Program-made: the position numbers and the translations under genes
Origin: Planctomycetota bacterium
GTDB taxonomy: Bacteria > Planctomycetota > Planctomycetia > Pirellulales > UBA7805
Assembly: GCA_036153155.1 (NCBI GenBank)
Contig: JAYZMM010000080.1
Span: 1 to 44,782 of the forward strand
DNA length: 44,782 nt
Reading direction: 5' to 3'
Part shown: positions 1 through 31,120 of the stretch, piece by piece
Layout: every line of letters begins with the position of its first letter
Position numbering within the stretch: the first letter of the stretch is position 1
The notes under the pieces: generated by a model
What the model was told of the DNA's origin: nothing
What the model saw: only the letters and a program-made list of their open reading frames with translations
Databases searched by the model: none

Positions 1-414
1 GCGAACAGAAAAAGAGAACATATGCCACACAGCATATACGCTGCGTCAGAAACAGCCTTTGGACAAGTCGGCGGACGAAAAAACAAATCAACATCATCCA
101 GGAGCCGAAGCGTCGGGCAGTTGCGGGGGATCCACGTGCCAAGGGACCCCGAAGGAAGGTTGTAACGGAGTCAACCGCAACCACAGTTTCCAACTAGTAT
201 AGTCCGTTATTGCAGACTGGTCAACGAAGACTACGCCTTGAGGCAAGCGATAAAGCTCTCTATACGCATTCGAGATTCTCTTTAACAACCCCGTGCGCGC
301 GGGATTCAATCAATCGCTTCGGCATACTACAATTCGGGCTGCGCCTGCCTTCCATGCGTGATCGAGATTTCACTCGTTGTCGATCTTTGCGGCCCCACCA
401 AGTCGCCCGTTATC

Positions 415-3400
415 ATGCCTTCTTCAGATCTTCAAGTTAAAGGTGCTCGCGAACACAACCTTCGCTCGATTGACGTAACCCTTCCGCGCAATCAATTGAT
501 CTGTCTGACGGGTGTCAGCGGGAGCGGAAAAAGTTCGCTTGCCTTCGATACCGTGTTTGCCGAAGGACAACGACGGTACGTGGAAAGCCTCTCGAGTTTT
601 GCTCGCCAGTTTCTGGGCCAAATGCCCAAGCCGGAGGTAGACTCGATCGAGGGGCTGAGCCCGACTATCTCGATCTCGCAGAAAACTTCCGGTCGCAATC
701 CTCGCTCGACCGTCGGAACGATTACTGAAATTTACGATTACCTCCGCGTGCTTTACGCCAGGGTCGGGCAGGGTCATTGTCCCCAGTGCAATCGGCCCGT
801 TACAGCACAAACTCGGGAACAGATCATCGCCCAAATCCTCAGCTTTGAGGAGGGTACGCCGATCGTCGTGCTTGCACCGCTCATCCGAGGGCAAAAGGGT
901 GAGTTTCGTGACCTGTTTGATGATCTGCTGCGGCAAGGTTTCTCCCGCGCTCGCATCGATGGACGAATCGCCAGCCTGAGTGAGAATCAGAGTCTTGATC
1001 GACAGATGCGACATAACATTGAAGTCGTGATCGATCGCGTGAAGATTGACAAGCGGCAACGCGGACGGCTGGCCGAAGCAGTGGAACTGGCACTCTCGGT
1101 CGGCAAGGGCAACCTGGTGGTGGTTGCCGATCCGAAGGCATCGGCAAACGAGCAAACGGAAGCTAAAGCAGGGCGTAACAAAAAATCGTCTGTTCCTACA
1201 GAAATCTCGGGAGCAGAATTACAACTCTCTTCCGAATTTGCCTGCACGCATTGTCAGGTGAGCTTTGAGCCGCTATCGCCGCAACTCTTCAGCTTCAACA
1301 GTCCACAAGGCATGTGTGAGGCATGTGACGGGTTGGGTGAATTTTTCAGTTTTGATCCACAATTACTCGTTCCCAAGCCTGATCGCTCGATTCAACAAGG
1401 AGGCGTGGAACTGATCGGGCGACTCAAGGATTTGGGTCGCTGGAAACGACACATATACAAAGGAGTTGCAGAAACTGTTGAGCGTTTGCGTGATCTTCCG
1501 CCCGGAACCATGCTGGAAACCGCTTGGGAAGAACTCGATGAAGAGTTACAGAATCTTTGGCTTTGGGGCACCGGTGACCAGCACATCACTTATACCTGGC
1601 GCGGCGGACAGCGGGGAATGAAACACGGGGGAACCTTTGAGGGAATCATCCCCGAACTTCTCTCGAAGTATCGCAGTAGTCGCAGCACGCCACAGATCCG
1701 TAAGCTTGAAAAATACATGAATACGATCCGCTGCCCCGACTGTCAGGGGCAGCGACTCAACCCGCAAGCCCGGTCCGTAAGGATCCCAAGTGCCGATCCT
1801 CTGTTTGCGGAAAATCCATCGCGGACCCTACCGGAACTCTGCCAGTTACCGATCGCAGACGCCGTTCAATTTTTCAGTAAACTACTCCTGACCGAGACCC
1901 ATCAAACGATTGCCGACGAACTGGTCAAGGAGATCCGAGGACGACTTGGCTTTCTTGAAAATGTGGGGCTCGACTATCTGAGCCTCGATCGAACGGCGCC
2001 CACTCTATCCGGAGGAGAATCGCAGCGGATTCGACTTGCCGGTCAGATCGGTTGCGGTCTGGTAGGGGTTCTTTACATCTTGGACGAGCCATCGATCGGA
2101 CTCCATACGCGTGACAACAATCGTTTACTCGACACGCTCAACCAACTCCGCGACCTAGGTAATACGGTAGTGGTAGTGGAACATGATGAAGATACGATGC
2201 GGGCCTCTGACCATGTGATCGACTTCGGGCCAGGGCCGGGTGTCCGTGGTGGCGAACTGGTCGCGCAAGGAGACTGGAAGGCAATCGCGCGTGAGAAACG
2301 AAGTGTGACCGGACAATATTTGGCCGGAACAGAGCAGATCGAAATTCCTCAGCAGCGACGTGAGCGAGACGAGAGAGCGATTCAGGTTTTAGGCGCAACC
2401 CATAACAATTTGAAAAATATCGATGTTGAGATTCCGCTCGGTATGCTCGTGTGCGTCACAGGCGTTTCCGGCTCTGGAAAAAGTTCGTTGGTAAGCGATA
2501 TTCTCGTCGAATCATTGCGGCGCGATCTGAATGCCGGAAAAGGTGACCCCGGCGCACACGCTTCGATCGAGGGCCTTGCGCATCTCGATAAACTGATTGC
2601 GATCGATCAATCACCCATCGGTCGCACACCTCGTTCCAATCCGGCAACCTACATCAAGGTGTTTGACGAGATCCGTAAGTTATATGCGCAACTGCCCGAT
2701 GCAAAACGCCGCGGTTACTCGGCAGGTCGATTCAGTTTCAATGTGCGTGGCGGGCGGTGCGAAGCTTGCGAGGGATGTGGTGCCAACAAACTCGAAATGG
2801 ATTTTCTCGCTGCCATCTGGGTGCCGTGTCCCATCTGCAATGCAAAACGATTTAACCGGGAAACACTGGAAATTCTCTACAAGGGAAAATCGATCGCCGA
2901 TGTACTTGAAATGGATATCCAGCAAGCGCTGCTCCACTTTGAAAACATTCCAAAAATTTATGACAAGCTGAAAACGTTGCATGACGTGGGGCTTGATTAC
3001 ATGAAACTCGGCCAACCGTCGCCCACGTTGTCCGGTGGTGAAGCACAGAGAATCAAACTTGCACGGGAGTTGGTCAAGAGAAGCACCGGTAAAACACTCT
3101 ATCTACTCGATGAACCGACGACTGGGTTGCACTTTGCCGATATCAAGATGCTGCTTTCGGTGCTGCAGAATTTTGTCGAGGCCGGCAACACGGTTTTGGT
3201 GGTCGAACACAATCTTGATGTGATCAAAACTGCTGATTGGGTAATTGATCTCGGACCCGAAGGGGGTGCTGCGGGAGGACGGCTTGTGGCGGAGGGGACG
3301 CCCGAATCGATCGCACGGGTGAGTGCTTCCCATACGGGCCGTTCACTGAAACGTTATTTCAATGAAAGCGAGAAGTCTGCAACCAAGCGGGCGCCGAAAA

Positions 3401-6400
3401 AATCAAAACCAGCGTCAACTGAAATTCGTGTTCGCGGAGCAAGGCAACACAATCTCAAGGGAGTCGACGTCAAAATTCCACGTGATGCCATGACCGTCTG
3501 CTGCGGCGTGAGTGGCAGTGGAAAAACCTCGCTGGCGATGGATACGATCTATGCCGAGGGACAGCGACGCTATGTTGAAAGTCTCAGCAGTTATGCGCGC
3601 CAATTTGTCGCTCAGATGCAAAAGCCCCCTCTCGACCAAATCGAGGGACTCTCTCCTTCGGTTGCCATTGAGCAGCGGCATATGGGGCACACTCCTCGCT
3701 CCACGGTTGGCACGGTCACCGAAATTTATGATTATCTGCGGATCCTGATCTCAAGAGTTGGCACGCCTCATTGTCCGGCATGCATGTCGGTGATCGGAAC
3801 ACAAACGGTTGACGAAATTATCGAGCGAATTGTCACAAAACCTCAAGGAACACAACTCTACCTGCTTGCACCGTTGACGATTTCGGTCGGCGAAAGATAT
3901 GAAGCACTTTGGGACCAGATTCGAGCACGTGGTTATATCCGGGTACGGATTGATGGGCAGACCTATTCGATTGATGAGACGCCCGAAATTGACCGTCGCC
4001 GAAAACACACCGTCGAAGTCGTTGTCGACCGGGTTACGATTCGAGCCAACACGCGAGGTCGTGTGGCGGAAAGTGTGGAAACCGCATTGGGGATCGGCGA
4101 AGGTACCATTCGGATTGCGGTGGTTGATAAAGAAAAGTCAGAAAATCGTTGGAAGTTGGAAACCCATAGCCAGCACTTCGCCTGCGATCAATGTGGTCGT
4201 AGTTTCGAGCCGCTCGGACCACATCACTTCTCTTTTAACAGTCCTTTGGGTTGGTGTGAATCGTGTGAAGGGCTGGGAACCGAAACTGGTACCAATCTGA
4301 CGGCACTGCTGCGGGATGGAAAACGTTCGCTGCGGGAAGGTGCCGTCGCCATCTGGCCGAATGTCGATCAGCAAATTTCACAGTGGATGCTCGACGCACT
4401 GGCGGCACAGCTAGATTTACCTGTGGATGAGCCCTTTGAGACCTTGTCGCACAGTGCGCGGCGGGCGGTGCTTTATGGAACAGGTGAAACATGGCTCGAA
4501 GTACGGCCCGACCGCAAGCAGGCAAAAAACAGTCCGCCCCTATTTCGCTTCCAATACAAGGGCCTTTACCCCGCACTCGATGAGGCGGCGCGACTCTCAG
4601 CACGCCTACGGGGACGGATGGAGCACTTGCTTAGCGAAGTGGAATGCAGCCAGTGCAGTGGAAGTCGATTGCGAGACGATGCCTCTGCGGTCCAATTCCG
4701 TGGCAAAACGATCGCCGATTTCTGTCGCCTGCCGCTAGGTGTTTTGCGTGAGGAGATCTGCGGGTGGAAACTGGATACACGGGAAAAGAAGATCGCCGGC
4801 GAGTTGGTTCGCGAAATTACCAACCGTGTCACTTTTTTGTGCGATGTGGGCCTGGAATACCTCTCGCTCGCGCGTCCCGCACCCAGCCTCTCTGGCGGTG
4901 AATCGCAGCGTATCCGGCTTGCAAGTCAGGTCGGCAGCGGCCTTTGCGGCGTGCTCTACGTACTGGACGAACCGACCATTGGATTGCACCCTCGCGACAA
5001 TCGCCGCCTGCTCGCAGCATTGCATCAACTACGCGATCTTGGCAATACGCTGCTGCTAGTGGAACACGATCGAGAGGTACTTGCTGCAGCCGATCATCTG
5101 CTTGATTTCGGACCCGGTGCAGGACGACACGGTGGAACGATTGTTGCTCAGGGCGACGAGAAGACCCTTGGACGCAAACGGGGGTCGGTCACCGGTCCTT
5201 ACCTCACCGGGAAAAAAGCGATCCCGATTCCCACCAACCGCCGAACCAATTCCACTGAGCAACCGTCAACACAGAAAAAAAAGAGTGCGAAAAAATCTTC
5301 CTCAAAACAACGTGTGATGCGCAAACCGGCCATTCCTATGGCCGAGCAAATTGAAATCATTGGCGCGCGACACAACAATCTGCAGAATCTGGATGTCGCA
5401 ATTCCGCTCGGCACGCTGACGGCGATCACCGGCGTAAGCGGTAGTGGAAAAAGCTCCTTGATTAATGACATTCTCTATAGTGCACTTGCGAGGCGACTCC
5501 ACCGAGCGCAGACAAGCCCCGCCCCGCACGATGAAATTCGCGGCATCCAGTACATCAACAAAGTTATCCGGGTCGATCAGCGACCGCTGGGGAACTCACC
5601 GACTTCGAATCCGGCAACCTACACCGGGTTGTTTGATCTGATTCGCACCCTCTTCGCGCAACTTCCCGAGGCGAAGGTGCGGGGTTACACCCCGAGACGA
5701 TTCAGTTTCAACGCTGCGGGTGGACGCTGTGACGATTGCGATGGCAATGGTCAATTGGCTGTCGAAATGCACTTTCTTCCCGACATCTGGGTTGAATGTG
5801 ATACCTGTCACGGAAAACGATACAACCCCGAAACGCTGAGCGTAGAATATCACGGTCGTAATATTGCCGATGTATTGGAAATGCCATGCGAAGATGCGCT
5901 GCAGTTATTCGACAAAATTCCCAAGATCCGACGTATTCTTAACACCCTGTGCGATGTGGGTCTCGGATACCTTCAACTCGGACAGGCGGCACCGACGCTC
6001 TCGGGTGGTGAGGCCCAACGGGTAAAGTTAGCTGCCGAACTCTCCCGCCCAGACACGGGTCAAACACTCTATCTCCTCGATGAACCAACAACTGGTCTCC
6101 ATTTTGAAGACTTGCGCAAACTATTGGATGTGCTACATCGTCTGGTCGACCTGGGCAATTCGGTGGTGGTGATTGAGCATAACCTTGATGTCATCAAATC
6201 GGCTGACTGGGTGATTGACCTGGGTCCGGAAGCAGGTAGTGACGGAGGCGAGGTGGTGACCTGGGGCACGCCGGAACAGGTTGCACTTTATGGGAAGAAG
6301 GCGTTGAGCAGCAAACGACTCCCGCGGAGCCATACCGGTGAAGTCCTTGCTGAGGTGCTTGATGCGGGACCTTACAAAAAACGGAAGGTGCATAATTTTG

Positions 6401-7413
6401 CAGCCGACACCAAAGAAAAATTCGGTGATATCGACATCACAGACATTGGGAATAGCCAGAAGATGCCCTGGGAAATCGATGGCCATCGTTGGCATACCAA
6501 AACCCGTGTCTCTCGAAGTGGAGAAACATGCAATTGGGATGGTGCCGTTGTCGAGCGGATTGTGGAATACATTGAAAGGGCAGGGGGCTTTCGTGATACG
6601 GACTGGAATAACCGAAGCGTGGTGGAAATTGCGGCAACCAAAAAAACGCATGGCTGGTTTTTTCATGCACTCACAGGAGAACCTTGGTTGGTCAAACTCA
6701 AATTCCGGACTGCTTCGCGGACGTTTCAGCACGCCACTCTCGTCGAGCGGGTCGGCATGACACCCCTTAATGATATGCACGATCTGCCGATATACGGGAC
6801 CGATCCCCGCGTGCGATGCAAAAATCTTCGCGGACCATGGCAGGAGATTGAACTCCAAGTTTCAACAATGCGGGAGATCGACCATCCGGCGTTTTGGGAA
6901 ATGCTCGATCAGGCTATCGCCGGATTTAAAAAGATCACCGATAAAAAAGAACAGCATCCCGAGGATGTGATGCCCTGGAAGGTGCTGGGTGAAAAATGGC
7001 ATTATGCCTCCAAAGGCTTTCCTCTGGGAAAAAAGCGCGAGTGGCCCGCCTCGCTTTTGGAAAAACTGCATCGCTTGCTCGAAAAGGTCGCCCCAGAGGG
7101 AGATTTCATCTGGACCAATCAGCAGGTGGTGCATCTGGTTGTGCCGGGACAAAAAGAGCCCTGGGCTACGCTGCATACCAAGCGATCGCAAGCCCTCGAG
7201 TTGTCAATTTCCGGACCGCACGGCCAATTCACCCTGGGCCGCATTGCGCGACTGGGCAACAGTCGCTCGCTGAGTGCGGGTTCGCTGGACACCTTCAAAT
7301 TCGCGTTCCGTGATCTCAAAGGCTTCCAGAATAGCGATCCGGAACATGGTGATTTGGAGGCTTTTCTCAAGGAACATCTAGCTCGGATCGCTCCCTCCGT
7401 AGTACCTGCCTAG
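415..7413 (+). CDS. uvrA: Tandem-duplicated UvrA-like protein (two complete excinuclease ABC subunit A units fused in one chain) with a duplicated C-terminal extension; 2332 aa from ATG 415
   Basis: The ORF is uninterrupted from 358 to 7413. ATG 415 gives MPSSDLQVKGAREHNL, the usual UvrA N-terminus, whereas the GTG at 358 adds 19 non-conserved residues. Four Walker A motifs GVSGSGK(S/T)S lie at nt 511, 2461, 3505 and 5431. There are four ABC signatures: LSGGESQRIRLA twice, LSGGEAQRIKLA and LSGGEAQRVKLA. Cys-x2-Cys zinc modules are present in both halves. Unit 1 spans ~415-3417, unit 2 ~3418-6370 and the extension ~6371-7410. The stop TAG 7411-7413 shares the palindrome CTAG with the stop of the convergent gene. 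Confidence 0.92.
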   Translation: MPSSDLQVKGAREHNLRSIDVTLPRNQLICLTGVSGSGKSSLAFDTVFAEGQRRYVESLSSFARQFLGQMPKPEVDSIEGLSPTISISQKTSGRNPRSTVGTITEIYDYLRVLYARVGQGHCPQCNRPVTAQTREQIIAQILSFEEGTPIVVLAPLIRGQKGEFRDLFDDLLRQGFSRARIDGRIASLSENQSLDRQMRHNIEVVIDRVKIDKRQRGRLAEAVELALSVGKGNLVVVADPKASANEQTEAKAGRNKKSSVPTEISGAELQLSSEFACTHCQVSFEPLSPQLFSFNSPQGMCEACDGLGEFFSFDPQLLVPKPDRSIQQGGVELIGRLKDLGRWKRHIYKGVAETVERLRDLPPGTMLETAWEELDEELQNLWLWGTGDQHITYTWRGGQRGMKHGGTFEGIIPELLSKYRSSRSTPQIRKLEKYMNTIRCPDCQGQRLNPQARSVRIPSADPLFAENPSRTLPELCQLPIADAVQFFSKLLLTETHQTIADELVKEIRGRLGFLENVGLDYLSLDRTAPTLSGGESQRIRLAGQIGCGLVGVLYILDEPSIGLHTRDNNRLLDTLNQLRDLGNTVVVVEHDEDTMRASDHVIDFGPGPGVRGGELVAQGDWKAIAREKRSVTGQYLAGTEQIEIPQQRRERDERAIQVLGATHNNLKNIDVEIPLGMLVCVTGVSGSGKSSLVSDILVESLRRDLNAGKGDPGAHASIEGLAHLDKLIAIDQSPIGRTPRSNPATYIKVFDEIRKLYAQLPDAKRRGYSAGRFSFNVRGGRCEACEGCGANKLEMDFLAAIWVPCPICNAKRFNRETLEILYKGKSIADVLEMDIQQALLHFENIPKIYDKLKTLHDVGLDYMKLGQPSPTLSGGEAQRIKLARELVKRSTGKTLYLLDEPTTGLHFADIKMLLSVLQNFVEAGNTVLVVEHNLDVIKTADWVIDLGPEGGAAGGRLVAEGTPESIARVSASHTGRSLKRYFNESEKSATKRAPKKSKPASTEIRVRGARQHNLKGVDVKIPRDAMTVCCGVSGSGKTSLAMDTIYAEGQRRYVESLSSYARQFVAQMQKPPLDQIEGLSPSVAIEQRHMGHTPRSTVGTVTEIYDYLRILISRVGTPHCPACMSVIGTQTVDEIIERIVTKPQGTQLYLLAPLTISVGERYEALWDQIRARGYIRVRIDGQTYSIDETPEIDRRRKHTVEVVVDRVTIRANTRGRVAESVETALGIGEGTIRIAVVDKEKSENRWKLETHSQHFACDQCGRSFEPLGPHHFSFNSPLGWCESCEGLGTETGTNLTALLRDGKRSLREGAVAIWPNVDQQISQWMLDALAAQLDLPVDEPFETLSHSARRAVLYGTGETWLEVRPDRKQAKNSPPLFRFQYKGLYPALDEAARLSARLRGRMEHLLSEVECSQCSGSRLRDDASAVQFRGKTIADFCRLPLGVLREEICGWKLDTREKKIAGELVREITNRVTFLCDVGLEYLSLARPAPSLSGGESQRIRLASQVGSGLCGVLYVLDEPTIGLHPRDNRRLLAALHQLRDLGNTLLLVEHDREVLAAADHLLDFGPGAGRHGGTIVAQGDEKTLGRKRGSVTGPYLTGKKAIPIPTNRRTNSTEQPSTQKKKSAKKSSSKQRVMRKPAIPMAEQIEIIGARHNNLQNLDVAIPLGTLTAITGVSGSGKSSLINDILYSALARRLHRAQTSPAPHDEIRGIQYINKVIRVDQRPLGNSPTSNPATYTGLFDLIRTLFAQLPEAKVRGYTPRRFSFNAAGGRCDDCDGNGQLAVEMHFLPDIWVECDTCHGKRYNPETLSVEYHGRNIADVLEMPCEDALQLFDKIPKIRRILNTLCDVGLGYLQLGQAAPTLSGGEAQRVKLAAELSRPDTGQTLYLLDEPTTGLHFEDLRKLLDVLHRLVDLGNSVVVIEHNLDVIKSADWVIDLGPEAGSDGGEVVTWGTPEQVALYGKKALSSKRLPRSHTGEVLAEVLDAGPYKKRKVHNFAADTKEKFGDIDITDIGNSQKMPWEIDGHRWHTKTRVSRSGETCNWDGAVVERIVEYIERAGGFRDTDWNNRSVVEIAATKKTHGWFFHALTGEPWLVKLKFRTASRTFQHATLVERVGMTPLNDMHDLPIYGTDPRVRCKNLRGPWQEIELQVSTMREIDHPAFWEMLDQAIAGFKKITDKKEQHPEDVMPWKVLGEKWHYASKGFPLGKKREWPASLLEKLHRLLEKVAPEGDFIWTNQQVVHLVVPGQKEPWATLHTKRSQALELSISGPHGQFTLGRIARLGNSRSLSAGSLDTFKFAFRDLKGFQNSDPEHGDLEAFLKEHLARIAPSVVPA

Positions 7414-8528
7414 GGCTTATCTGGTTGCAGGCTGGCCAAGGTGGAAACCCACAGAAAAGGTTGCGCTGCATCATCCAACCGCACCGCAAAAGTGAGTTGA
7501 TGTTGCCGCAAAAGCTGTCGCAGGACTGCCGAGTGTATAAATCGTCCTGCTCGCATTGTGACGTTTGCATTGGCTTTCACGCCTGCCCTCGCCAATTCCC
7601 GATCATCGAGCAGGATAGGGACCCCCATGCGGGCCGCAAGTTGGAGCATCGCATCGCGGAGTGGCAACGTGACTTTCTGTGTCTCAACTTGCTTACCGAG
7701 CACCGGCATAGTCCGGGCAGCCGATTGATCAGAATCCCAGCCTACGGGCCAGACTTGGCTCTTATTTGTTTTTTCGATCACCCGCCAACGATCAGCCCCA
7801 TCTAATGGATAAAGTCCCAAGCCAAGGGGTCGCAATAACGCGGCCAGTGCCGTACCTGTGGCCAGCCCCTCGAGATTCTCGGAAGAGGTGACAGATCGCA
7901 CGATTTTCTCCCGCTGACGTTTATCAATCGCTAGAGGCAGACGCTGTTCAGCAAGTAATCGATCGATTAATTCGGCTCGTTCCATTCCGTCCGTCGCAAT
8001 ATTTACCTGGGCGGACATCTGCTGGCGAGCGCGATCCAATTGTGCTGCGGACAAACCGAAGGGACCCTGCGTATTGTCACCGGTACCATCGCCCCCCTGT
8101 TGCAGATTACGCAACCATTCCTTGATCTTTCGAAATTCACGTTGATTGAATTGATCGCCGGACGGAAAGACGATCCGGTCGTTGCGTAAAAATGCGATCA
8201 CGCGATAGCGCGGAAATTTAGCAGTTCCGATATTTTCTACGCCGGGCGCATCGCCCAACCGCTTACTGCGAATAGAAACACGACTGAACCCTGCTTTGCC
8301 CAGAACCTCGGCCCATTCCTGAGGCGCAAGAATAGAGCGGTTCCCTTCGTTGATCACTTCAATGTCCACCGCCGGAGCGGCTGCATCTGCAGCCGCCGGA
8401 CCATAGAAGCTCAGGCAAAACCATAAACTGAACAAGGTAATCCAAAGCCATCGCATGCAAAGTTCAATCCGCTTGCGACCGATGACCCATGAAGCGCGCA
8501 TGCTGATTCGCAATCTGAGAGTATTCAT
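7410..8528 (-). CDS. Hypothetical exported protein (N-terminal hydrophobic signal-like segment), no recognisable family
   Basis: A 372-codon ORF convergent with uvrA. The segment MRWLWITLFSLWFCLSFYGPAAADAAA looks like a signal peptide, so the true start may be ATG 8456 rather than 8528. I recognise no catalytic motifs. Confidence 0.6.
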   Translation of the reverse strand: MNTLRLRISMRASWVIGRKRIELCMRWLWITLFSLWFCLSFYGPAAADAAAPAVDIEVINEGNRSILAPQEWAEVLGKAGFSRVSIRSKRLGDAPGVENIGTAKFPRYRVIAFLRNDRIVFPSGDQFNQREFRKIKEWLRNLQQGGDGTGDNTQGPFGLSAAQLDRARQQMSAQVNIATDGMERAELIDRLLAEQRLPLAIDKRQREKIVRSVTSSENLEGLATGTALAALLRPLGLGLYPLDGADRWRVIEKTNKSQVWPVGWDSDQSAARTMPVLGKQVETQKVTLPLRDAMLQLAARMGVPILLDDRELARAGVKANANVTMRAGRFIHSAVLRQLLRQHQLTFAVRLDDAAQPFLWVSTLASLQPDKP

Positions 8529-8756: not shown

Positions 8757-9425
8757 ATGGCCCCATTATTGGCAGACATCCAGGATATACTCGGTGCGAT
8801 CGTTCCGGTGCTGTTTGTGATCTTCTGGGTGATCAGCCAGGTCATCGCGGGCATCAATAAGGCCCGCAGGGGGCAGGCCGCACCGCCGCAGCAGTTTCCT
8901 CCGCAGAAAATTCCGCCTTCACCTGAAGAGGATGCATTGGCAAAGGAAATCGAACGATTTTTGGGACAAAAACGAGAGCCGGCACGTCCGCGGGAACAAC
9001 TTCCCCGCCCTGCCGATTCTGTCGTCACGGCCGAGGTAACCCGGCCCACTCCCGAGAGCACAACCAAGGCACCGCCGAGGGAACCGCTAACGCGTACCGG
9101 CGGTAACCGATCAGACCGCAGTGTGCAGCGTCAAGAAAGCTCGAGGAAAAAGAAAGTTACTCCTGCGGGGCAATCGATCGGTTCCACGATTGCAAAACAG
9201 AAACGCCAAACTGACGGTCCACAACCGTTGACAACCTTGCCTGGAAATATCCCTGCACCTCCACCGATGAATACCGGTGGAGTGCAAGACGTCGGTATTA
9301 TTGATCTTCCCGACAGTGGAGCGACCGATGTGAATCCATGGCAGGCCATGATCAGTGACCCGACGACGTTACGACAGGCGTTTCTTCTGAGTCAGATTTT
9401 TTCCCGTCCGGAAGATCGTTGGTAA
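8757..9425 (+). CDS. Hypothetical membrane-anchored protein with a proline/basic-rich low-complexity tail
   Basis: ATG 8757. The N-terminal hydrophobic helix is GAIVPVLFVIFWVISQVIAGI, followed by a P/Q/R/K-rich sequence. The stop TAA 9423-9425 directly abuts ATG 9426 of the next gene, which suggests translational coupling. Confidence 0.6.
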   Translation: MAPLLADIQDILGAIVPVLFVIFWVISQVIAGINKARRGQAAPPQQFPPQKIPPSPEEDALAKEIERFLGQKREPARPREQLPRPADSVVTAEVTRPTPESTTKAPPREPLTRTGGNRSDRSVQRQESSRKKKVTPAGQSIGSTIAKQKRQTDGPQPLTTLPGNIPAPPPMNTGGVQDVGIIDLPDSGATDVNPWQAMISDPTTLRQAFLLSQIFSRPEDRW

Positions 9426-10337
9426 ATGAAAATCTCCCCCGCGGATACCCGCATCGGATGGATTGGCCTCGGCGTGATGGGGCGGAGCATGTGCCAGCAC
9501 CTCTGTGCAGCCGGCTATCGCATGACTGTCTTTACCCGCACGGCAACGAAGGCAAAGGACATATGCAACCAGGGGGCGAATTGGGCTGATAGTCCGGTTG
9601 ATGTGGTCGCTGCCTCAGATGTGGTTTTCACGATGCTTGGATACCCCGAGGATGTACGGTCGGTTTACCTAGGAAAGAATGGTTTAATTGCGTCGGCAAA
9701 ATCGGGCACTATTTTAATTGACATGACTACCAGTGAACCCTCGCTGGCCATGCAGATTGCCCGCGAGGGAGAGCAGCGAGGATTATCTTGTGTCGATGCA
9801 CCTGTCTCGGGTGGCGATGTGGGTGCGCGGGAAGGCACACTCTCCATCATGCTTGGGGGCGAACCAAAGGTATGTGAAGATTTAGATTCGCTCCTGCGAA
9901 TCCTGGGCTCAACCATTGTTCATCAGGGAAGTCCGGGAATGGGCCAGCACACGAAAATGGTCAATCAGACGCTGATCGCCAGTGGAATGGTGGGCGTTTG
10001 CGAAGCATTATTATATGCCTATCGCGCGGGCCTTGATTTGCAAACGGTACTCGAATCGGTTGCCTCCGGTGCGGCAGGTAGCTGGTCACTCACACATCTT
10101 GCACCTCGGATTTTGCAGAGCGATTTTGAACCCGGATTTTTTGTCGAGCACTTTGTGAAAGATATGGGAATTGCTCTCCAGGAAGCACGCCGCATGAAGC
10201 TATCACTTCCCGGACTGGCGTTAGCAGAGCAACTCTACTTGGCGTTGGTCGCACAGGGGCACGGCCGAAGCGGCACTCAAGCCCTACAGTTGGCCCTAGC
10301 GTCCGCTTCGGGAATCGACTGGAAATCGGGTGCGTAG
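9426..10337 (+). CDS. NAD(P)-dependent oxidoreductase, beta-hydroxyacid (3-hydroxyisobutyrate / 2-hydroxy-3-oxopropionate) dehydrogenase family
   Basis: The N-terminal Rossmann motif is [17 protein letters not shown]. The length (303 aa) and the motifs DAPVSGG and GxGQxxKxxNQ are typical of the MmsB/GarR family. Confidence 0.85.
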
Positions 10338-10426
10338 CGGCCCCGGCGTTGAATCAACCGTAATCGAGCCGCGTAAAATAGCAATCACCGGCTGGAATCG
10401 ATTCCGCAGAGTCCGCCGCTGGCTCC

Positions 10427-10456
10427 TTGATTGTGCGATCTGCGGCATGGTAGGAT
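10427..10456 (+). promoter_or_regulatory. Candidate sigma70-type promoter (TTGATT - 18 nt - TAGGAT) upstream of the basic micro-ORF
   Basis: Hexamers TTGATT (10427-10432) and TAGGAT (10451-10456) are separated by 18 nt. This is a pattern match only, and promoter consensus in this lineage is not known to me. Confidence 0.2.
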
Positions 10457-10513
10457 GATGAAAGTGGAAGTAATTTCTCTGAGTATGATAAATCTGTTCT
10501 GGGGACGAATATT

Positions 10514-10603
10514 TTGGGTACAAAAAAGTCGGGAAAAGGACGACGAAAAATTGGTCGCAAAAAGCGGCGGATGCGAGCAAAAATAAGGCATCGCAAGAAG
10601 TAA
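10514..10603 (+). CDS. 29-codon highly basic micro-protein, candidate ribosomal protein bS22-like (AURKAIP1/COX24-type peptide)
   Basis: I translated this by hand because it is below the ORF-track cutoff. TTG 10514 through TAA 10601-10603 gives (M)GTKKSGKGRRKIGRKKRRMRAKIRHRKK. GGGGA lies 9-13 nt upstream. An in-frame stop at 10451 bounds the ORF, and the alternative starts are CTG 10499 and ATT 10511. The pattern KKRR..M..K..HRK resembles mycobacterial bS22 (MGSVIKKRRKRMSKKKHRK...). Confidence 0.55.
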   Translation: MGTKKSGKGRRKIGRKKRRMRAKIRHRKK

Positions 10604-10671
10604 TTTCGCCTTTTCCACAGTAGGGTCATCAGCGTTCTATCGCCCCTGACCGTCTCGACGATTTCTTCGAT

Positions 10672-10715
10672 CTGTTTTTTGGCAGGGGGTTTGTGTTACG
10701 ACCTGTCAAAAACAG
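10672..10715 (+). other. Imperfect long hairpin (about 14 bp stem with one bulge and one G-U, 15-nt loop) between the micro-ORF and scpB
   Basis: CTGTTTTTTGGCAGG ... CCTGTCAAAAACAG. There is no 3' U-tract, so it is not a canonical intrinsic terminator. Confidence 0.5.
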
Positions 10716-10859
10716 AAACCGCAGTGAATTTCGAGCTATTTTCGCATGGACTTCAGCCTGCGCATCTCATTACATTGAGCGTGCTGCAAAGTGGTGCATC
10801 TGTGGTTCGTAAATCGATGCATCGGAAATCGTTTTTCCGGAAAAATATTGTTGGGCTGC

Positions 10860-11906
10860 ATGGTGCTTTCTCGTACGTTTAACAATCTGGGTGTTCGCCT
10901 CGGTAGCGCCTCCTTACGCTTTACCGGCACACTCACACAGCGAACATGCAAGCAGGGGAACCCTCGGCGACCAATCGCCTTGAATCCGGCCCAGACGACA
11001 GGCGAAGCGACCGCGACGCATCCTGACGATTTATCTCACCTGGAGGCTGTTCTTTTTCTTGCTTCTCAACCGCTTCCGAGTCGAAAGTTAGCGCAGCTTG
11101 TACGTTTAAGCGATGGAACAGCAGCACGCACTCTTATTAAAGAACTCAACGCAAATTACGAACAACGCGATCGAGCTTTCCGGGTTGAAGAGGTCGCCGG
11201 AGGATATCAACTTCGCACACAGAAAATCTTTGCGCCTTGGATTCGAAAAATGGTTTCGGTGCCCCGAGAGATTCGGCTATCAGGGCCGGCTATGGAAACT
11301 CTTGCAGTGGTCGCATATCGTCAGCCTGTCATGCGGACCGAGATCGAAAAAGTTCGCGGAGTGCAGTGCGGAGAGATTCTTCGGCAACTGATGGAACGTG
11401 GGATGGTCCGAATTTCTGGTCGCGCTGATGAACTGGGACGTCCCTTCCTATACGGCACCACTAAGAACTTTTTAGAAGTCTTCGGGCTTCGCAGTCTTGA
11501 CGAACTTCCGCGGGCGTCTATGCTGCGAACAACTGGGGAAACGGCAGATGATGAACTACTGATCGAGGAGGATAAATCGGTGAGCGTGTGTGATGCGACA
11601 GACGTGTCGAAACAAGAAGATGAGGGGCAACCAAGCGAGCAGATTCCGGTAGCGAACATGGAAGAAGAATTCGACGACGAACTCGAAAACGATGATGAAG
11701 AGTACGAGGACGATGACTACGACGACGATGACTACGATGATGAAGAAGATGATGAGGATGAGTCGGACGACGATGACGGATTCAATGATGATGAGTGGGA
11801 AGAAGTTGAAGACGATGAAGAACTAGAAGAAGAGGATGAGGATTGGGAAGAAGACGAAGATACCTGGGATGATGATGACGATGAGGACTGGGACGACGAT
11901 GATTGA
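10860..11906 (+). CDS. scpB: SMC-Scp complex subunit ScpB (segregation and condensation protein B) with an ~80-aa polyacidic C-terminal tail
   Basis: The core LEAVLFLASQPL...GGYQLRT...METLAVVAYRQPVMRTEIEKVRGV...GRPFLYGTTKNFLEVFGL is a textbook ScpB tandem winged-helix. The start is uncertain: the ORF opens at GTG 10791 and the first ATG is 10860. The tail at 11658-11903 is almost pure D/E with interspersed W/Y/F. Confidence 0.88.
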   Translation: MVLSRTFNNLGVRLGSASLRFTGTLTQRTCKQGNPRRPIALNPAQTTGEATATHPDDLSHLEAVLFLASQPLPSRKLAQLVRLSDGTAARTLIKELNANYEQRDRAFRVEEVAGGYQLRTQKIFAPWIRKMVSVPREIRLSGPAMETLAVVAYRQPVMRTEIEKVRGVQCGEILRQLMERGMVRISGRADELGRPFLYGTTKNFLEVFGLRSLDELPRASMLRTTGETADDELLIEEDKSVSVCDATDVSKQEDEGQPSEQIPVANMEEEFDDELENDDEEYEDDDYDDDDYDDEEDDEDESDDDDGFNDDEWEEVEDDEELEEEDEDWEEDEDTWDDDDDEDWDDDD

Positions 11907-11943
11907 CCGACAAATGAAATCCGTCAGGTAGGGAGTGCTTGCG

Positions 11944-12960
11944 ATGCTCGTGGTTATGCAACATCAGGCAACCGATGAAGAGGTTGCGCAAGTCGTTGCC
12001 ACTGTTGAAAAAATGGGGCTTACCGCGCATCCGATGCCGGGTCCAACGCGTACAGCAATCGGTATTACGGGTAATTCCTCATCGGTCGACCCACGCAGCC
12101 TGGAGGTTCTACCGGGCGTGCGAGAGCTTATTCGTGTGACGCGGCCTTACAAATTGGCTAGCCGGGAAATGCATCCTGAGGACACGATTGTGGAGGTCGG
12201 AACCGCGCGTTTCGGCGATCCCTCCTTTACGGTAATTGCCGGTCCTTGCAGTGTGGAAAGCGAAGCGAACGTGCTGCAGGTGGCTGAATATCTCATGAGC
12301 CGAGGCGTGACCTTGCTGCGTGCAGGAGCATTCAAGCCAAGAACGAGCCCCTATAGTTTTCAAGGCATGGAGCAAGAAGGCTTAGCGATTCTGGAACGGG
12401 CCCGAGAAAAAACGGGCATCCGCATCGTGACCGAAGTCATGGATACCGAGCAGGTAGAAGCCGTTGCAGCATCGGCAGACATCATTCAAATCGGCACACG
12501 AAACATGCAAAATTTCTCCCTGCTCAAAAAGGTTGCAAGCTGCAAACGACCAGTACTACTGAAGCGAGGCATGTCAGCCACGCTAGATGAATGGCTGATG
12601 GCGGCCGAATATTTACTTGCTGGCGGGAATAAGAATGTCATCCTATGCGAGCGCGGAGTAAGAACATTTACAGACCACACACGCAATACGTTGGACTTGT
12701 CCGTTGTGCCTCCCGCAAAGGAAAATTCGCATCTGCCGATCTTGGTTGATCCGAGTCATGGAACGGGACATCGGAATTACGTGCCGGCCATGGCGCTTGC
12801 CGGACTGGCCGCCGGGGCCGATGGATTAATGGTTGAGGTCCACCCCGATCCCTCGACCGCGATGAGTGATGGGGCGCAAACGCTCGACTTTGAGGAGTTC
12901 GATCGCTTACTGGAATCGTTGCGGGCTCTGGCGGAACCGCTGGAACGAAACATCGGTTAG
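11944..12960 (+). CDS. aroF: 3-deoxy-7-phosphoheptulonate (DAHP) synthase, type I-beta with N-terminal ferredoxin-like regulatory domain
   Basis: The protein has an N-terminal ~70-aa ACT/FL-like domain followed by IAGPCSVES...LRAGAFKPRTSPYSFQG...KRG...DPSH. ATG 11944 sits 8-10 nt after GGGAG. GTG 11935 overlaps that SD-like element. Confidence 0.88.
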   Translation: MLVVMQHQATDEEVAQVVATVEKMGLTAHPMPGPTRTAIGITGNSSSVDPRSLEVLPGVRELIRVTRPYKLASREMHPEDTIVEVGTARFGDPSFTVIAGPCSVESEANVLQVAEYLMSRGVTLLRAGAFKPRTSPYSFQGMEQEGLAILERAREKTGIRIVTEVMDTEQVEAVAASADIIQIGTRNMQNFSLLKKVASCKRPVLLKRGMSATLDEWLMAAEYLLAGGNKNVILCERGVRTFTDHTRNTLDLSVVPPAKENSHLPILVDPSHGTGHRNYVPAMALAGLAAGADGLMVEVHPDPSTAMSDGAQTLDFEEFDRLLESLRALAEPLERNIG

Positions 12961-19285: not shown

Positions 19286-19835
19286 CGATATTCTCCGCCT
19301 CAATTCAGCTTGTTTTCAATTTAAATTCGGGAGCAGGGTGTCCGGATCGAAGAGTTTTACGGCGCCGCCCAAAATCCAGTTACAAGACCGTCATCGGTCA
19401 CGCCACCACCGTTGATTTGATTGATGTGACGCAGCGGTTGCACGTGCACAATTGTCAAAGCAGGAACCGTAGAGAATAGCACAATTCATACGTCTTTAGC
19501 AGGGAGAGCCGATGGGACGGGGGGTGCTCAAAGGCATCCAGCATGCAAAGTATCGGGTGTTATCCTAGCTGCCTCGCGCGCCGCCCTCGCCGCCATTGTG
19601 ATCTGAGATCTGATGCGGAAGTATGAAAAATTTCAACACCGCGGTAGAATCGTGTTCTGCACGTAGATTCAACTTGAACAACAAGCGGATCTTGCGGCAA
19701 TTGGCACCGAACCAATCCCGTTGGTGCGGCACGGGCTTCCGGTGGTTGCAATCGTTGGTGAGACCGGGAAAATAATATGTTCCGGGGTAGCTCCGCAGAA
19801 ATATAAACTTGGCAGATGAAAAGGAATTACGTTTG

Positions 19836-21263
19836 ATGCATTCACAATTGGTCGTACTCGGTGGTGGTCCCGGTGGTTACGCCGCTGCCTTCATGGCAGC
19901 GGATCTTGGCTTTGAAGTCACCATAGTGGACCGGGAAGGAAAACGGGGTGGCGTCTGTCTGTTGCGAGGATGTATCCCTTCCAAGGCCTTGCTTCACGTC
20001 GCTAAGGTGATTAGCGAAAGTCGCGAAATGACCGAGTGGGGTGTATCCATGGGGGCGGCTGAGATTGATGTTGAAAAAATGCGGGCCCGCAAAGAAAAAG
20101 TCATCCAGACACTGACTGGTGGCCTGGCACAATTGGCAAAAAAACGGAAAGTGCGCGTCATACAGGCAGAGGGAGTATTTGAAAATTCTGACTCGCTACG
20201 TCTCAGTGGTGGTGACCCTGAGACTTATAAAGAAGGTGATTTACTCTCGTTCGATCGCGTCATCTTGGCAACCGGTTCTTCCCCCGCAATGCCGTCTGTC
20301 TTTCGAATCGACAATCCTCGGGTCATGGATTCAACTGCCGCCTTGGCGTTGACCGATATCCCTGAAAAATTATTGGTCGTCGGCGGTGGTTACATCGGCC
20401 TGGAACTGGGCACTGTCTATGCCGAACTCGGTACGAAGGTGTCGGTCGTTGAATTGACCGACCAATTGTTGATGGGTGCTGACCGAGATCTCGTAAAACC
20501 GCTGCAGAAACGTCTAGAAAATTCGTTTGAAAATATTCATCTTCGCACTGAGGTGACCGCCCTGATCGACCTTGGAGATCAGATTGAAGTCGTGATGGCG
20601 GGTGAGTTGGCAGCGACGGAAAAATTTGATCGCGTCTTGGTATCGGTTGGCCGAAGACCAAACAGCAATAACCTGGGATTAGAAAACACTGGCGTACAAA
20701 TCGATGCGCGAGGTTTTGTGCTTACTGATCTTCGGCAACAAACTGCGGATCCGAAAATTATGGCGATCGGTGACGTTGCAGGAGAACCAATGCTAGCCCA
20801 CAAGGCGGCCCATCAAGGAAAGATCGCTGTTGAAGCGATGGCCGGTGAACCGGCCGAATTCGATAAATTGGCCAGTCCAGCCGTTGTGTTCACGGACCCG
20901 GAGATTGCGTGGGCCGGATTGACTGAAGAGCAGGCAAAGCAAGAGGGAATCACTTACGAAGTTGCTCAGTATCCATGGGCAGCAAGCGGAAGAGCACAAG
21001 CGGTCGGGGCGACCTCGGGCATGACTAAACTCTTATTCGAACCAGAATCTGAGCGATTGCTCGGTGTCGGTTTGGTTGGCAGTGGCGCCGGTGAGTTGAT
21101 TGCCGAAGGTGTCGTGGCGATCGAAATGGGAGTGACCGCTCGCGATTTGGCCGAGTCGATTCACCCTCACCCCACACTCAGTGAAACCTTGGCCTTCGCT
21201 GCCGAGGTTCACCTAGGATTGGCAACCGAAGTCTATCGACCCAAGAGAAAACCTGTCGGTTAA
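19836..21263 (+). CDS. lpdA: Dihydrolipoyl dehydrogenase (E3 component)
   Basis: The FAD motif is VVLGGGPGGYAAAF, the redox disulfide is GGVCLLRGCIPSK, the NAD motif is VVGGGYIGLELG and the C-terminal dyad is HPHPTLSE. ATG 19836 gives the usual N-terminus, and the ORF opens at TTG 19809. Confidence 0.93.
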   Translation: MHSQLVVLGGGPGGYAAAFMAADLGFEVTIVDREGKRGGVCLLRGCIPSKALLHVAKVISESREMTEWGVSMGAAEIDVEKMRARKEKVIQTLTGGLAQLAKKRKVRVIQAEGVFENSDSLRLSGGDPETYKEGDLLSFDRVILATGSSPAMPSVFRIDNPRVMDSTAALALTDIPEKLLVVGGGYIGLELGTVYAELGTKVSVVELTDQLLMGADRDLVKPLQKRLENSFENIHLRTEVTALIDLGDQIEVVMAGELAATEKFDRVLVSVGRRPNSNNLGLENTGVQIDARGFVLTDLRQQTADPKIMAIGDVAGEPMLAHKAAHQGKIAVEAMAGEPAEFDKLASPAVVFTDPEIAWAGLTEEQAKQEGITYEVAQYPWAASGRAQAVGATSGMTKLLFEPESERLLGVGLVGSGAGELIAEGVVAIEMGVTARDLAESIHPHPTLSETLAFAAEVHLGLATEVYRPKRKPVG

Positions 21264-21589
21264 AGGGATTCGACGGGCGTGAAACCCTTCTGGAGGGGGC
21301 GAAAACTGCCTCCAGATGCGGCAAACCTCTCTTTACGTTTAGCCGTAACTTGGGGAAAATAAGATAGCTAACGGTTTTTTGCTTGGCGAGATTAGGCCCC
21401 ACTTCAACGTAAGATGGGAAGCACGTTTTGGCTCGCCTGAGAGACAGATGATGTGGATAGCTGAAGCCGTTTGGCATGGGAAACCAAGGTGCGGGTTGGC
21501 TTATCCGAGAACCCTGCAATCCACCGGTAAAGACAACCGGTAAAGATGACTCCTTGTTTGCGGCATCATGACACCCGGGATTTAGAGCA

Positions 21590-24280
21590 ATGGCCACGGA
21601 TGTGAAAACTTCGAATAGCGGACAAGACGTTGATCCTTCGGAAACGGCCGAATGGCTCGAATCACTGCGATACGTGCTTGAGCAGAAAGGTCCGGAACGG
21701 GTCCGCTATTTGCTCAGTAAGCTTGAAGACCAGGCTCATCGGGAAGGGGTCGACTTACCGTTTACGGCCAACACGCCATACGTGAATTCGATTCCGATCG
21801 ACAAGCAGCCCGTCTATCCGGGGAACCGCGAAATCGAGCGCCGCATCAAGAGCATCATTCGTTGGAACGCAATGGCAATGGTCACGCGTGCCAACCAGGT
21901 ATCGCCCGGGATCGGTGGACATATTTCGACGTTCGCATCGAGTGCCACACTCTATGAGGTTGCCTTAAATCATTTCTTAAGAGGTGATTATGGCGATTTT
22001 CGTGGCGACCGGGTCTACTTTCAAGGGCACGCCTCTCCGGGCATTTACGCGAGGGCTTTTCTTGAAGGTAGGCTGACGGAGGAAAATCTCGTTAATTTTC
22101 GTCGCGAACTCCGCGATGTGCCCGGACTGTCCTCATATCCTCATCCATGGTTGATGCCCGACTTCTGGGAGTACCCGACCGTGTCGATGGGCCTTGCGCC
22201 GATCATGGCGATTTATCAGGAACGATTCAATCAATACCTACGCGATCGAGGGATCAAGGATACGACGGAAAATCGTGTCTGGGCGTTCCTGGGGGATGGT
22301 GAATGTGATGAACCGGAGACGCTCGGTGCGATTGGGCTTGCAGCGCGAGAGAAGCTCGACAATCTCACTTTCGTGATTAACTGCAACCTGCAACGACTTG
22401 ATGGCCCGGTGCGCGGCAATGGCAAGATTATTCAAGAACTCGAGGCGGTTTTTCGGGGCGCGGGTTGGAACGTTATCAAAGTTTTGTGGGGAGATGACTG
22501 GGATCTGCTTTTTGAAAAAGATCACCAGGGCCTACTGGCAAAGCGGATGATGGAAGTTGTGGACGGAGAATATCAGAAATATAAAGTTGCCGGCGGCGCG
22601 TATATTCGAGAACACTTTTTCGGCAAGTATCCTGAATTGCTCGAAATGGTCAAGAATTATTCGGACGAGCGTCTGGTCAAACTTCGACGCGGCGGACACG
22701 ATCCAGAAAAAGTATATGCAGCTTACAAGGCGGCAGTCGAGTTTCGCGGAAAGCCGACCGTTATCCTGGCAAAAACGATCAAAGGCTACGGCTTAGGCGA
22801 GGCGGGGGAAGGTCGTAACATTTCGCACAATCAGAAAAAACTTAACGAAGAAGAATTGCGAGAGTTCCGGAGTCGCTTCGGTATCCCGATATCGGACGAT
22901 GAAGTTTCCAGCGCGCCTTTTTATAAACCGGCCGAGGATAGCCCGGAATTACAATATCTGCGCGAGCGGCGCGAGGCTTTGGGTGGATCCCTGCCCGCCC
23001 GAAGCCAGAAGCGGATGAAGCTGGAAACGCCAACTCTGGCAGGCTACGAAGAATTCCTGGGGGGCAGCAAAGGGAAGCCGATGTCAACCACCATGGCATT
23101 TGTTCGGCTTCTGAGCAAACTGCTTCGAGAGGAACATGTCGGTAAGCGCATTGTTCCAATTGTTCCCGACGAGTCGCGGACCTTTGGAATGGAAGGACTC
23201 TTTCGGCAATGTGGTATCTACGCCCATACGGGGCAACTTTACGAGCCGGTCGATTCCGAGCAACTCCTTTATTACAAAGAGGCAAAGGACGGACAAATCC
23301 TCGAGGAGGGAATCACTGAAGCGGGCAGCATGGCTTCCTTCATTGCGGCGGGAACCTCCTATTCCGCACTTGGTGAGCCGATGATCCCTTTCTTCATCTA
23401 TTATTCGATGTTCGGGTTCCAGCGGATTGGTGATCTCATCTGGTGTGCTGCGGACGCGCGAGCTCGCGGCTTTATGATCGGCGGAACGGCGGGTCGAACA
23501 ACGCTTAATGGAGAAGGTCTTCAGCACCAGGATGGACACAGCTTGCTCAATGCAATCGCATTTCCGACGGTACGCTCCTACGACCCCGCATACGCATATG
23601 AGATTGCAGTCATTGTGATGGATGGCATGAAGAGGATGTATCAAGATAACGAAGATGTGATCTACTATGTCACGTGTGAGAACGACAACTACGTCATGCC
23701 TGCGATGGAAGATCCCGATCGGGTCACCGAGGGAATCATCCGGGGAATGTATAAACTTAAAACAGAAGAAGTAGATAGTGCCGAGCATCATGTCCAGTTA
23801 CTTGGTAGCGGTGCGATTCTCAACAGCAGTTTAGCTGCACAGCAATTGCTGGCAGAGAATTACGGAATTTCTAGCACTGTCTGGAGCGTTACTAGTTACA
23901 CAGAACTCGCGCGTGAAGCCCAAGCGACCGAGCGTTTCAATCGACTCCATCCCACCAAAAAGGCGAAAACTTCTTATCTAGAAGACCTGGTTTCAGGTCT
24001 GGAGGGTCCGTTTATCTCGTCCTCCGACTACGTACGTGCTGTGAGCGAGCAAATCAGCCCCTGGATTCCTGGTGGACTCTACGCCTTGGGAACCGACGGT
24101 ATGGGCAGAAGCGAGACGCGAGAGTCGCTGCGGAGACATTTTGAGGTGGATGCCGAAAGCATTGTCATTGCGACTCTATATAAATTATCGCTTCAGGGCA
24201 AAATACCTCGTAAAACCGTGGATGATGCGATCAAAAGCTTTGCTTACGACCGCGACAAGATTGATCCATATTTTGCCTGA
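21590..24280 (+). CDS. aceE: Pyruvate dehydrogenase E1 component, homodimeric type
   Basis: At 896 aa this matches AceE length. Motifs include ETAEWLESL, GGHISTFAS, the TPP-binding GDGECDEPE...NCNLQRLDG, and the C-terminal GTDGMGRSETRE. Confidence 0.95.
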   Translation: MATDVKTSNSGQDVDPSETAEWLESLRYVLEQKGPERVRYLLSKLEDQAHREGVDLPFTANTPYVNSIPIDKQPVYPGNREIERRIKSIIRWNAMAMVTRANQVSPGIGGHISTFASSATLYEVALNHFLRGDYGDFRGDRVYFQGHASPGIYARAFLEGRLTEENLVNFRRELRDVPGLSSYPHPWLMPDFWEYPTVSMGLAPIMAIYQERFNQYLRDRGIKDTTENRVWAFLGDGECDEPETLGAIGLAAREKLDNLTFVINCNLQRLDGPVRGNGKIIQELEAVFRGAGWNVIKVLWGDDWDLLFEKDHQGLLAKRMMEVVDGEYQKYKVAGGAYIREHFFGKYPELLEMVKNYSDERLVKLRRGGHDPEKVYAAYKAAVEFRGKPTVILAKTIKGYGLGEAGEGRNISHNQKKLNEEELREFRSRFGIPISDDEVSSAPFYKPAEDSPELQYLRERREALGGSLPARSQKRMKLETPTLAGYEEFLGGSKGKPMSTTMAFVRLLSKLLREEHVGKRIVPIVPDESRTFGMEGLFRQCGIYAHTGQLYEPVDSEQLLYYKEAKDGQILEEGITEAGSMASFIAAGTSYSALGEPMIPFFIYYSMFGFQRIGDLIWCAADARARGFMIGGTAGRTTLNGEGLQHQDGHSLLNAIAFPTVRSYDPAYAYEIAVIVMDGMKRMYQDNEDVIYYVTCENDNYVMPAMEDPDRVTEGIIRGMYKLKTEEVDSAEHHVQLLGSGAILNSSLAAQQLLAENYGISSTVWSVTSYTELAREAQATERFNRLHPTKKAKTSYLEDLVSGLEGPFISSSDYVRAVSEQISPWIPGGLYALGTDGMGRSETRESLRRHFEVDAESIVIATLYKLSLQGKIPRKTVDDAIKSFAYDRDKIDPYFA

Positions 24281-24350
24281 TCGATGCGGATTATACTGGA
24301 AATCAAACAGACACCATTTCAATCACATCAAAATCTATAATGATTAACCT

Positions 24351-27834: not shown

Positions 27835-28431
27835 TCAGTCGGAATGCTTTGTCCGCAATCTTGGTGACGTTCTCAAGATAAGTTGGATCCGCTCAAACTC
27901 GTCAAGCCAATCTTGAACAACTTCCGCGTGTTGATTGTTTACACCCAGAATTCCCGTACTGCAGGCAGCCCCTTCGAGTGAGGCCGCCATCCGACGATAC
28001 TTCGCAAGGGTTCGATCTCCATAACGACCTACTTGTTGCATATCCTCACTAAAAAAGACGACTTGAGGCACCCGCGCGCCTCCACAGATTGTAAGTGTTT
28101 CCTTCAGTTCTGCATGGGCATCCCGATCCACATAACGTACATGAATCACCTCCGTCGCTGCTTCAAATACGCCGAAGATCGGACATTGTTCAGCGCAATC
28201 GCCACACCAAGCCCCGGCCAGGCACAGCACATGCATTTCACGAACAAAACTGCCGAGCAATCCTGCTTGCTCGGGACTAAGCTTTGTCTGTTCATAAACT
28301 TGTTGCCATCGGTCGCGGTCACCTTCCGAGGCATACTGATTCAAAAAATCGTTATATTTAAATCCGGATTCGTAATAGTCGGCTATATTCATAAGATGGC
28401 TTGATGCAACGATCGACCGGTTCGGATTCAT
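27835..28431 (-). CDS. Thioredoxin-fold protein (WCGDC active-site motif)
   Basis: It has the CxxC motif AGAWCGDCAEQCP and a cis-Pro-like RVPQVVFF segment. The start is 28431 or the internal ATG 28392 (MNIADYY). Confidence 0.7.
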   Translation of the reverse strand: MNPNRSIVASSHLMNIADYYESGFKYNDFLNQYASEGDRDRWQQVYEQTKLSPEQAGLLGSFVREMHVLCLAGAWCGDCAEQCPIFGVFEAATEVIHVRYVDRDAHAELKETLTICGGARVPQVVFFSEDMQQVGRYGDRTLAKYRRMAASLEGAACSTGILGVNNQHAEVVQDWLDEFERIQLILRTSPRLRTKHSD

Positions 28432-28446
28432 TATTTCCCAACCGGT

Positions 28447-30931: not shown

Positions 30932-31035
30932 ATTTGCCCCATTCACATATGCAAAATACCCATTACCACTAGTGAGGGTACTCGGCTACTCGTCGTGAAA
31001 TGCCCTAAAACGCGTTAACCCAAGACTAACAACAG

Positions 31036-31120
<85 letters not shown>

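Follow-up and report, generated by a model that had tools for sequence, protein, structure and literature searches.

A tandem UvrA-UvrA gene of Pirellulales with a family-specific C-terminal tail

UvrA normally acts as a symmetric homodimer; as a result, the roles of its individual ATPase sites or UvrB-binding domains are hard to assign. The window analysed here (the whole 44,782-nt stretch of planctomycete DNA) contains a gene in which two UvrA units and a C-terminal tail share a single reading frame. Three questions arise at this locus: what such a protein does, whether the fusion is genuine, and which part of it is new.

An earlier note, made from the sequence alone, described one uninterrupted 2332-aa ORF at 415-7413. 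This is correct; positions 358..7413 (+) form a single open frame without internal stop. The ATG at 415 gives the 2332-aa product, and the resulting N-terminus (MPSSDLQVKG) agrees with database relatives. The gene is built as follows.

415..7413, + strand: whole gene, tandem uvrA-uvrA plus tail, 2332 codons and a stop (ORF, Pfam, NCBIfam, homologues)
415..3315, + strand: UvrA unit 1 (aa 1-967), complete class I, with Walker A motifs at nt 511 and 2461 and three Cys4 zinc modules (NF001503, 1358.7 bits, profile positions 4-941 of 943)
808..1125, + strand: UvrB-binding domain of unit 1 (aa 132-237; Pfam UvrA_inter, 123.8 bits)
1354..1710, + strand: insertion domain of unit 1 (aa 314-432; Pfam UvrA_DNA-bind, 65 bits)
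3316..3420, + strand: linker 1 (aa 968-1002), rich in Lys, Ser and Pro, pI 11.1, poorly conserved
3421..6294, + strand: UvrA unit 2 (aa 1003-1960), complete class I, with Walker A motifs at nt 3505 and 5431 and three Cys4 zinc modules (NF001503, 1268.7 bits)
3802..4125, + strand: UvrB-binding domain of unit 2 (aa 1130-1237; Pfam UvrA_inter, 122.9 bits)
4309..4587, + strand: insertion domain of unit 2 (aa 1299-1391; Pfam UvrA_DNA-bind, 51.5 bits)
5215..5340, + strand: Lys-rich insertion of unit 2 in the connector between NBD-I and NBD-II (aa 1601-1642), pI 12
6295..6459, + strand: linker 2 (aa 1961-2015), the canonical UvrA C-terminal SHTG motif followed by a basic, variable stretch
6460..6969, + strand: tail module 1 (aa 2016-2185), Trp-rich alpha/beta, with the motif MPWEIDGHRWH
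6970..7410, + strand: tail module 2 (aa 2186-2332), which repeats module 1 in diverged form; motif MPWKVLGEKWH

Both units carry the complete UvrA motif set. The Walker A motifs at aa 33, 683, 1031 and 1673 fall exactly on the nucleotide positions reported earlier, and the four ABC signatures reported with them (LSGGE(S/A)QR) are present, together with four Walker B motifs and four H-loops. The full Cys4 set described for each half is also there; twelve CxxC pairs make up six Cys4 modules. An alignment of 120 homologues (62-90% identity) shows little or no variation at the 24 zinc cysteines or in the Walker A, Walker B, signature and H-loop motifs. On the whole protein, Pfam finds two UvrA_inter and two UvrA_DNA-bind domains plus ABC_tran, which bears out the claim that both halves keep the UvrB-binding and insertion domains. 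The UvrB-binding domain is flanked by CPQC (aa 122) and CTHC (aa 277) in unit 1 and by CPAC (aa 1120) and CDQC (aa 1257) in unit 2. The insertion domain of unit 2 is rather more diverged than its counterpart in unit 1.

The two units were scanned separately (aa 1-990 and aa 991-1962) against the NCBIfam UvrA equivalog NF001503, which has a cut-off of 1147 bits. Each unit alone scores above this cut-off, and both also pass TIGR00630. Unit 1 matches NF001503 end to end in a single stretch, while unit 2 matches in two stretches; the whole protein reaches 2622.6 bits against the UvrA model.

Three flexible basic segments can be counted per chain: the two linkers and the Lys-rich insertion of unit 2. 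Linker 1 is 35 aa long in the window protein, and its Lys-rich core lies at aa 986-1001 (nt 3370-3417), just where the earlier note placed a Lys-rich linker. Across the family, the window bracketing linker 1 (aa 966-1004) ranges from 39 to 83 aa with a median of 45. A basic, poorly conserved segment of variable length is what is expected of a flexible tether. The Lys-rich insertion (~42 aa) is found only in unit 2 and is absent from unit 1; in the family, the segment that brackets it is 19 to 82 aa long. At aa 246 (nt 1150-1152) the window protein has Glu (KASANEQ), whereas the database representative P0001, listed as 100% identical, has Gly (KASANGQ); the window sequence thus belongs to the P0001 cluster as a near-identical member and not as its representative.

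Units 1 and 2 are 47% identical over ~1000 aa. Identity in the first 120 residues is 63%, within the 60-65% estimated previously by hand. Mean identity to the window type across the family is 72% for unit 1, 69% for unit 2 and 53% for the tail, and unit 2 is slightly more diverged than unit 1 in every domain. Motifs, domains and family-wide identity give no sign that either unit is disabled. Both units keep all domains and are under similar constraint, almost equally; the proposal that the two halves have specialised asymmetrically is consequently unsupported for the Pirellulales lineage.

The tandem gene lies in an ordinary chromosomal housekeeping context. Its neighbours include ScpB (10791-11906) and DAHP synthase (11935-12960), and genes of the pyruvate dehydrogenase complex follow in a row at 19809-25814 (E3-like dihydrolipoyl dehydrogenase, E1 and E2). 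Neither uvrB nor uvrC is present within the 44,782 nt. Two ORFs immediately downstream have no Pfam match: a 372-aa ORF at 7410-8528 (-), convergent with uvrA and with a 4-nt overlap at the uvrA stop codon, and a 222-aa ORF at 8757-9425 (+). Further along, positions 28001-31120 have a GC content of 0.449, compared with 0.52-0.56 elsewhere in the window. This stretch carries an MBOAT-family ORF (29489-30946, -) and an ORF without Pfam match (28447-29532, -), adjoins a tRNA-Leu(gag) at 31035-31120, and may be an acquired island.

The best explanation, to which we give a probability of about 0.65, is that in this Pirellulales planctomycete the gene encodes UvrA, the damage sensor of nucleotide excision repair (NER), in the form of a covalent pseudo-dimer. 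Domain content, conservation and the housekeeping context all point to this reading. Through the flexible basic linker between them, the two class I units would fold onto one another and form the equivalent of the UvrA2 homodimer. Judged by its domain content (four ATPase sites, six zinc modules and two copies each of the insertion and UvrB-binding domains), a single chain could scan DNA and, as in a UvrA2B2 complex, take on as many as two UvrB molecules. The pair of Trp-rich alpha/beta modules in the tail may serve as an accessory module for binding a partner or nucleic acid. From these features we infer the intramolecular dimer, UvrB loading, a housekeeping role and status as the sole UvrA.

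The protein could instead be a specialised paralogue in a genome that has an ordinary uvrA at another locus, with the tail conferring a special function such as handling of a particular lesion class, or drug tolerance as in class II UvrAs. This is unlikely. UvrA paralogues with roles outside NER do exist, such as class II UvrA and Ecm16 (PMC9328131), and the tail is lineage-specific, as a specialised paralogue would allow. However, class II UvrAs lack the UvrB-binding domain (PMC3167621, PMC9328131), whereas the Pirellulales protein keeps it in both units, and both units score above the UvrA equivalog threshold. The gene is also widespread: in a scan with the tail alignment (one genome per GTDB species), 459 species genomes encode the tail-bearing form, and the gene sits in a housekeeping context. 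Finally, unit 1 was used as query in an exhaustive HMMER search of 1.84 billion 50%-identity representatives; among the 150 best matches (P0241-P0390), only P0352 and P0377 are complete single-size UvrAs, and these are ~54% identical to unit 1.

Alternatively, the units could pair between two chains (1 with 1', 2 with 2', or crosswise), which would bring four units and eight ATPase sites together in one assembly. Both units show high conservation of the dimer-interface regions in the NBD-I signature area; pairing within a chain and pairing between chains are therefore both possible on this evidence. Two points make the interchain arrangement improbable, and somewhat more so than a specialised paralogue. 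Firstly, a tether of 39-83 aa (measured across the family over the segment bracketing linker 1, aa 966-1004) should make intramolecular pairing entropically favoured. Secondly, one unit is without a domain in many other tandem lineages, a state that would be tolerated most easily in a fixed 1:1 heterodimer within one chain. A covalent pseudo-dimer acting in NER thus remains the preferred reading.

The fusion itself is genuine and old and is no assembly artefact, as the earlier note had concluded. A whole-protein search returns at least 120 clusters at the 90% identity level (2299-2446 aa, 62-90% identity), which with few exceptions cover the whole query; those that carry a name are annotated 'excinuclease ABC subunit UvrA' from Pirellulales or Planctomycetia. 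The best 80 of the 459 genomes with the tail-bearing form all belong to Pirellulales or Planctomycetota, and the nearest is the MAG DS_MAG18 (96%). The frame closes within the locus in 51 cases, and 39 of these combine all four Walker A motifs in a single frame 2300-2550 codons long. The broken loci that were noted come from nanopore 'MFD' assemblies with frameshifts; in one, pieces of 1665, 350 and 350 aa follow directly on one another, as frameshift errors typically leave them. An assembly or gene-calling artefact that joins two adjacent uvrA genes might be suspected from the two or three ORFs into which the gene is split in some related genomes, but it is refuted for practical purposes by the continuous frame in at least 120 independent protein clusters and 39 loci, by the frameshift character of the split genes, and by the 47% identity of the halves, which shows that they are no collapsed repeat.

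The ~2300-aa 'UvrA' genes annotated in Pirellulales are therefore genuine and are not errors, whereas the split versions in long-read MAGs are frameshift artefacts. Among MFD MAGs, frameshifts break the gene into adjoining ORFs in L001 (2956-10053), L013, L017, L023, L034, L043 and L051, and also in L053, L055, L069 and L074. Such splitting places spurious 'stand-alone tail' proteins and truncated UvrA proteins in the databases. Stand-alone tail proteins were considered as a separate class and rejected; the short database matches are contig-end or frameshift fragments of the tandem gene.

One genome carries two tandem-UvrA-plus-tail genes. In JAIOQB01 (LakeFargette MAG_62_14) they are found on different contigs and are 76% identical over ~2250 aa (L009, match at 10001-11086; L016, match at 5599-6696). 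The pair reflects either a mixed bin or true paralogues.

Covalent UvrA-UvrA tandems are not restricted to planctomycetes. Complete tandems make up 115 of the 150 best representatives; they are 1567-2343 aa long and come from several phyla. Examples are found in Chlamydiales (1885 aa, P0246), Chloroflexota (1915 aa, P0248), Spirochaetota (2166 aa, P0304) and the betaproteobacterial endosymbiont Candidatus Kinetoplastibacterium (1809 aa, P0328). NCBIfam also holds an equivalog for double-size UvrA, NF001885 (PRK00635; 1809 positions). The earlier note had rated the tandem architecture, combined with the tail, as the most unusual object in the window; for the architecture this does not hold. The UvrA-UvrA architecture is common and already annotated, and what is new is the tail.

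Domain content varies among these tandems. In the 123 examined, both units are full in 44, as in the Pirellulales protein; the insertion domain is missing from unit 2 in 38; the UvrB-binding domain is missing from both units in 28 (class II twice over, ~1600 aa); and a few show other asymmetric losses. Asymmetric specialisation is thus clearly visible in other tandem lineages. A neighbour-joining tree of all units contains about five groups. In each, the C units form a clade that mirrors, with nearly the same membership, a clade made up of N units only; across the whole tree, N units and C units do not separate. In Pirellulales, too, the N clade and its mirrored C clade stand by themselves, apart from the P0246 group; each has 100% bootstrap, and a sister relation between the two has 2%. 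A sister relation to the tail-less P0244 has weak bootstrap (56% and 12%) and is not claimed. Identities to the other tandems are not reciprocal. Taken together, and with deep nodes at low bootstrap, the tree fits several old, independently inherited tandems that may stem from independent duplications.

The tail distinguishes the Pirellulales family from all these tandems. Among the 115 tandems of the best 150 representatives, a long C-terminal extension (343-371 aa) is found only in the Pirellulales family; all 112 non-Pirellulales tandems end no more than 37 aa past unit 2. The extra C-terminal module pair described earlier is real: the tail has an internal repeat, MPWxxxGxxWH, with a BLASTP E value of 7e-10. 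It contains 13 Trp in 317 aa, most of which are invariant or nearly so in 93 aligned sequences, and many conserved Arg and Lys. AlphaFold2 with the 93-sequence alignment predicts the module pair with a mean pLDDT of 93.5 and module 1 alone with a pLDDT of 90.7 and a pTM of 0.86. In the predicted structure each module has the topology a-b-b-b-a-b-b-a.

Neither Pfam nor NCBIfam gives a match for the tail, and a Foldseek search of the tail model against the PDB and a viral library returns nothing significant; the tail is accordingly a family-specific domain without assigned function. Consistent weak Foldseek matches (E 0.012-0.2, TM <=0.53) are to three folds. The matches to T3SS class I chaperones (SycH, 1TTW; SycE; SycN/YscB) and to YbjN-family proteins (YbjN, 6VU7; Deinococcus radiodurans DR_1245, 4H5B) are the best of these but weak (TM 0.31-0.44, E 0.012-0.2, where assignment to this fold would call for a significant score and TM >0.5) and agree in topology; the third is to the DNA-binding C-terminal domain of phage T4 MotA (1KAF). 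The fold resemblance and the conserved aromatic and basic residues suggest that the tail is most likely an accessory module that binds a partner protein or nucleic acid, a tentative assignment. A bolder proposal, that the tail is a new recruitment or lesion-handling domain which couples the single-chain UvrA to a non-canonical NER partner, is doubtful; if true, the damage-recognition step would be modified in Pirellulales.

Two other routes to the identity of the tail were tried and rejected. A link to YjbR is suggested by the resemblance to the MotA C-terminal domain and by the position of yjbR next to uvrA in E. coli; at sequence level it was rejected, since hhalign gives profile similarity to E. 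coli YjbR a probability of 0.03, and the tail has no Pfam match to the YjbR/MmcQ double-wing family. In a PDB profile search with the tail alignment, all matches were to the ABC portion that some fragments include.

With a natural single-chain UvrA2, mutants could be made asymmetric, so that the four ATPase sites and two UvrB-binding domains are altered one at a time. The many tandem lineages are ready-made material for such work, including those in which a domain has been lost in one unit only. Full-text searches find descriptions of class I and class II UvrA (including PMC3167621, PMC9328131, PMC5128194 and PMC518961) but nothing on tandem UvrA, neither biochemical work nor a paper on the diversity of asymmetric tandem forms. 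The locus retains moderate interest because of this gap in the literature and because of the uncharacterised tail, ~340 aa long and conserved in 459 species genomes, for which there is neither a family model nor an assigned function.

Compared with known systems, each unit of the Pirellulales protein has the same domain and motif set as class I UvrA (E. coli UvrA; Geobacillus 2R6F; Thermotoga 3PIH; M. tuberculosis 3ZQJ), and class I UvrAs are its closest solved structures (1048-1113 bits for the closest, 990-1113 bits for the solved class I structures overall). Class I UvrA is a ~950-aa protomer that homodimerises, whereas here two units are joined in one chain of 2332 aa, far beyond the ~940-1000 aa of a class I protomer; a ~370-aa tail and the Lys-rich insertion in the connector of unit 2 are additional. 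Class II UvrAs (D. radiodurans UvrA2, 2VF7; Ecm16, 7SH1; DrrC) share the ABC ATPase core and zinc modules. Their structures score much lower (633 and 444 bits), and the UvrB-binding domain that defines class II by its absence is present in both units of the Pirellulales protein.

The double-size UvrAs are closest in plan. Swiss-Prot lists double-size UvrAs, and Goosen and Moolenaar (2008) reportedly list them too. The Chlamydiales protein likewise has two complete units in tandem and is annotated as excinuclease ABC subunit A, but unlike the Pirellulales protein it has no tail. The Pirellulales protein scores 1387.7 bits against NF001885, far below the cut-off of 3054, and therefore falls outside that family. 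The tandems of Chloroflexota, Candidatus Kinetoplastibacterium and Spirochaetota are also covalent UvrA-UvrA proteins, but none has the tail. For the tail, T3SS class I chaperones, YbjN and the MotA C-terminal domain have the same a-b-b-b-a-b-b-a order with only 8-14% identity, and no relation is found at the sequence level. Unlike these folds, the tail consists of two modules fused in tandem to a repair ATPase.
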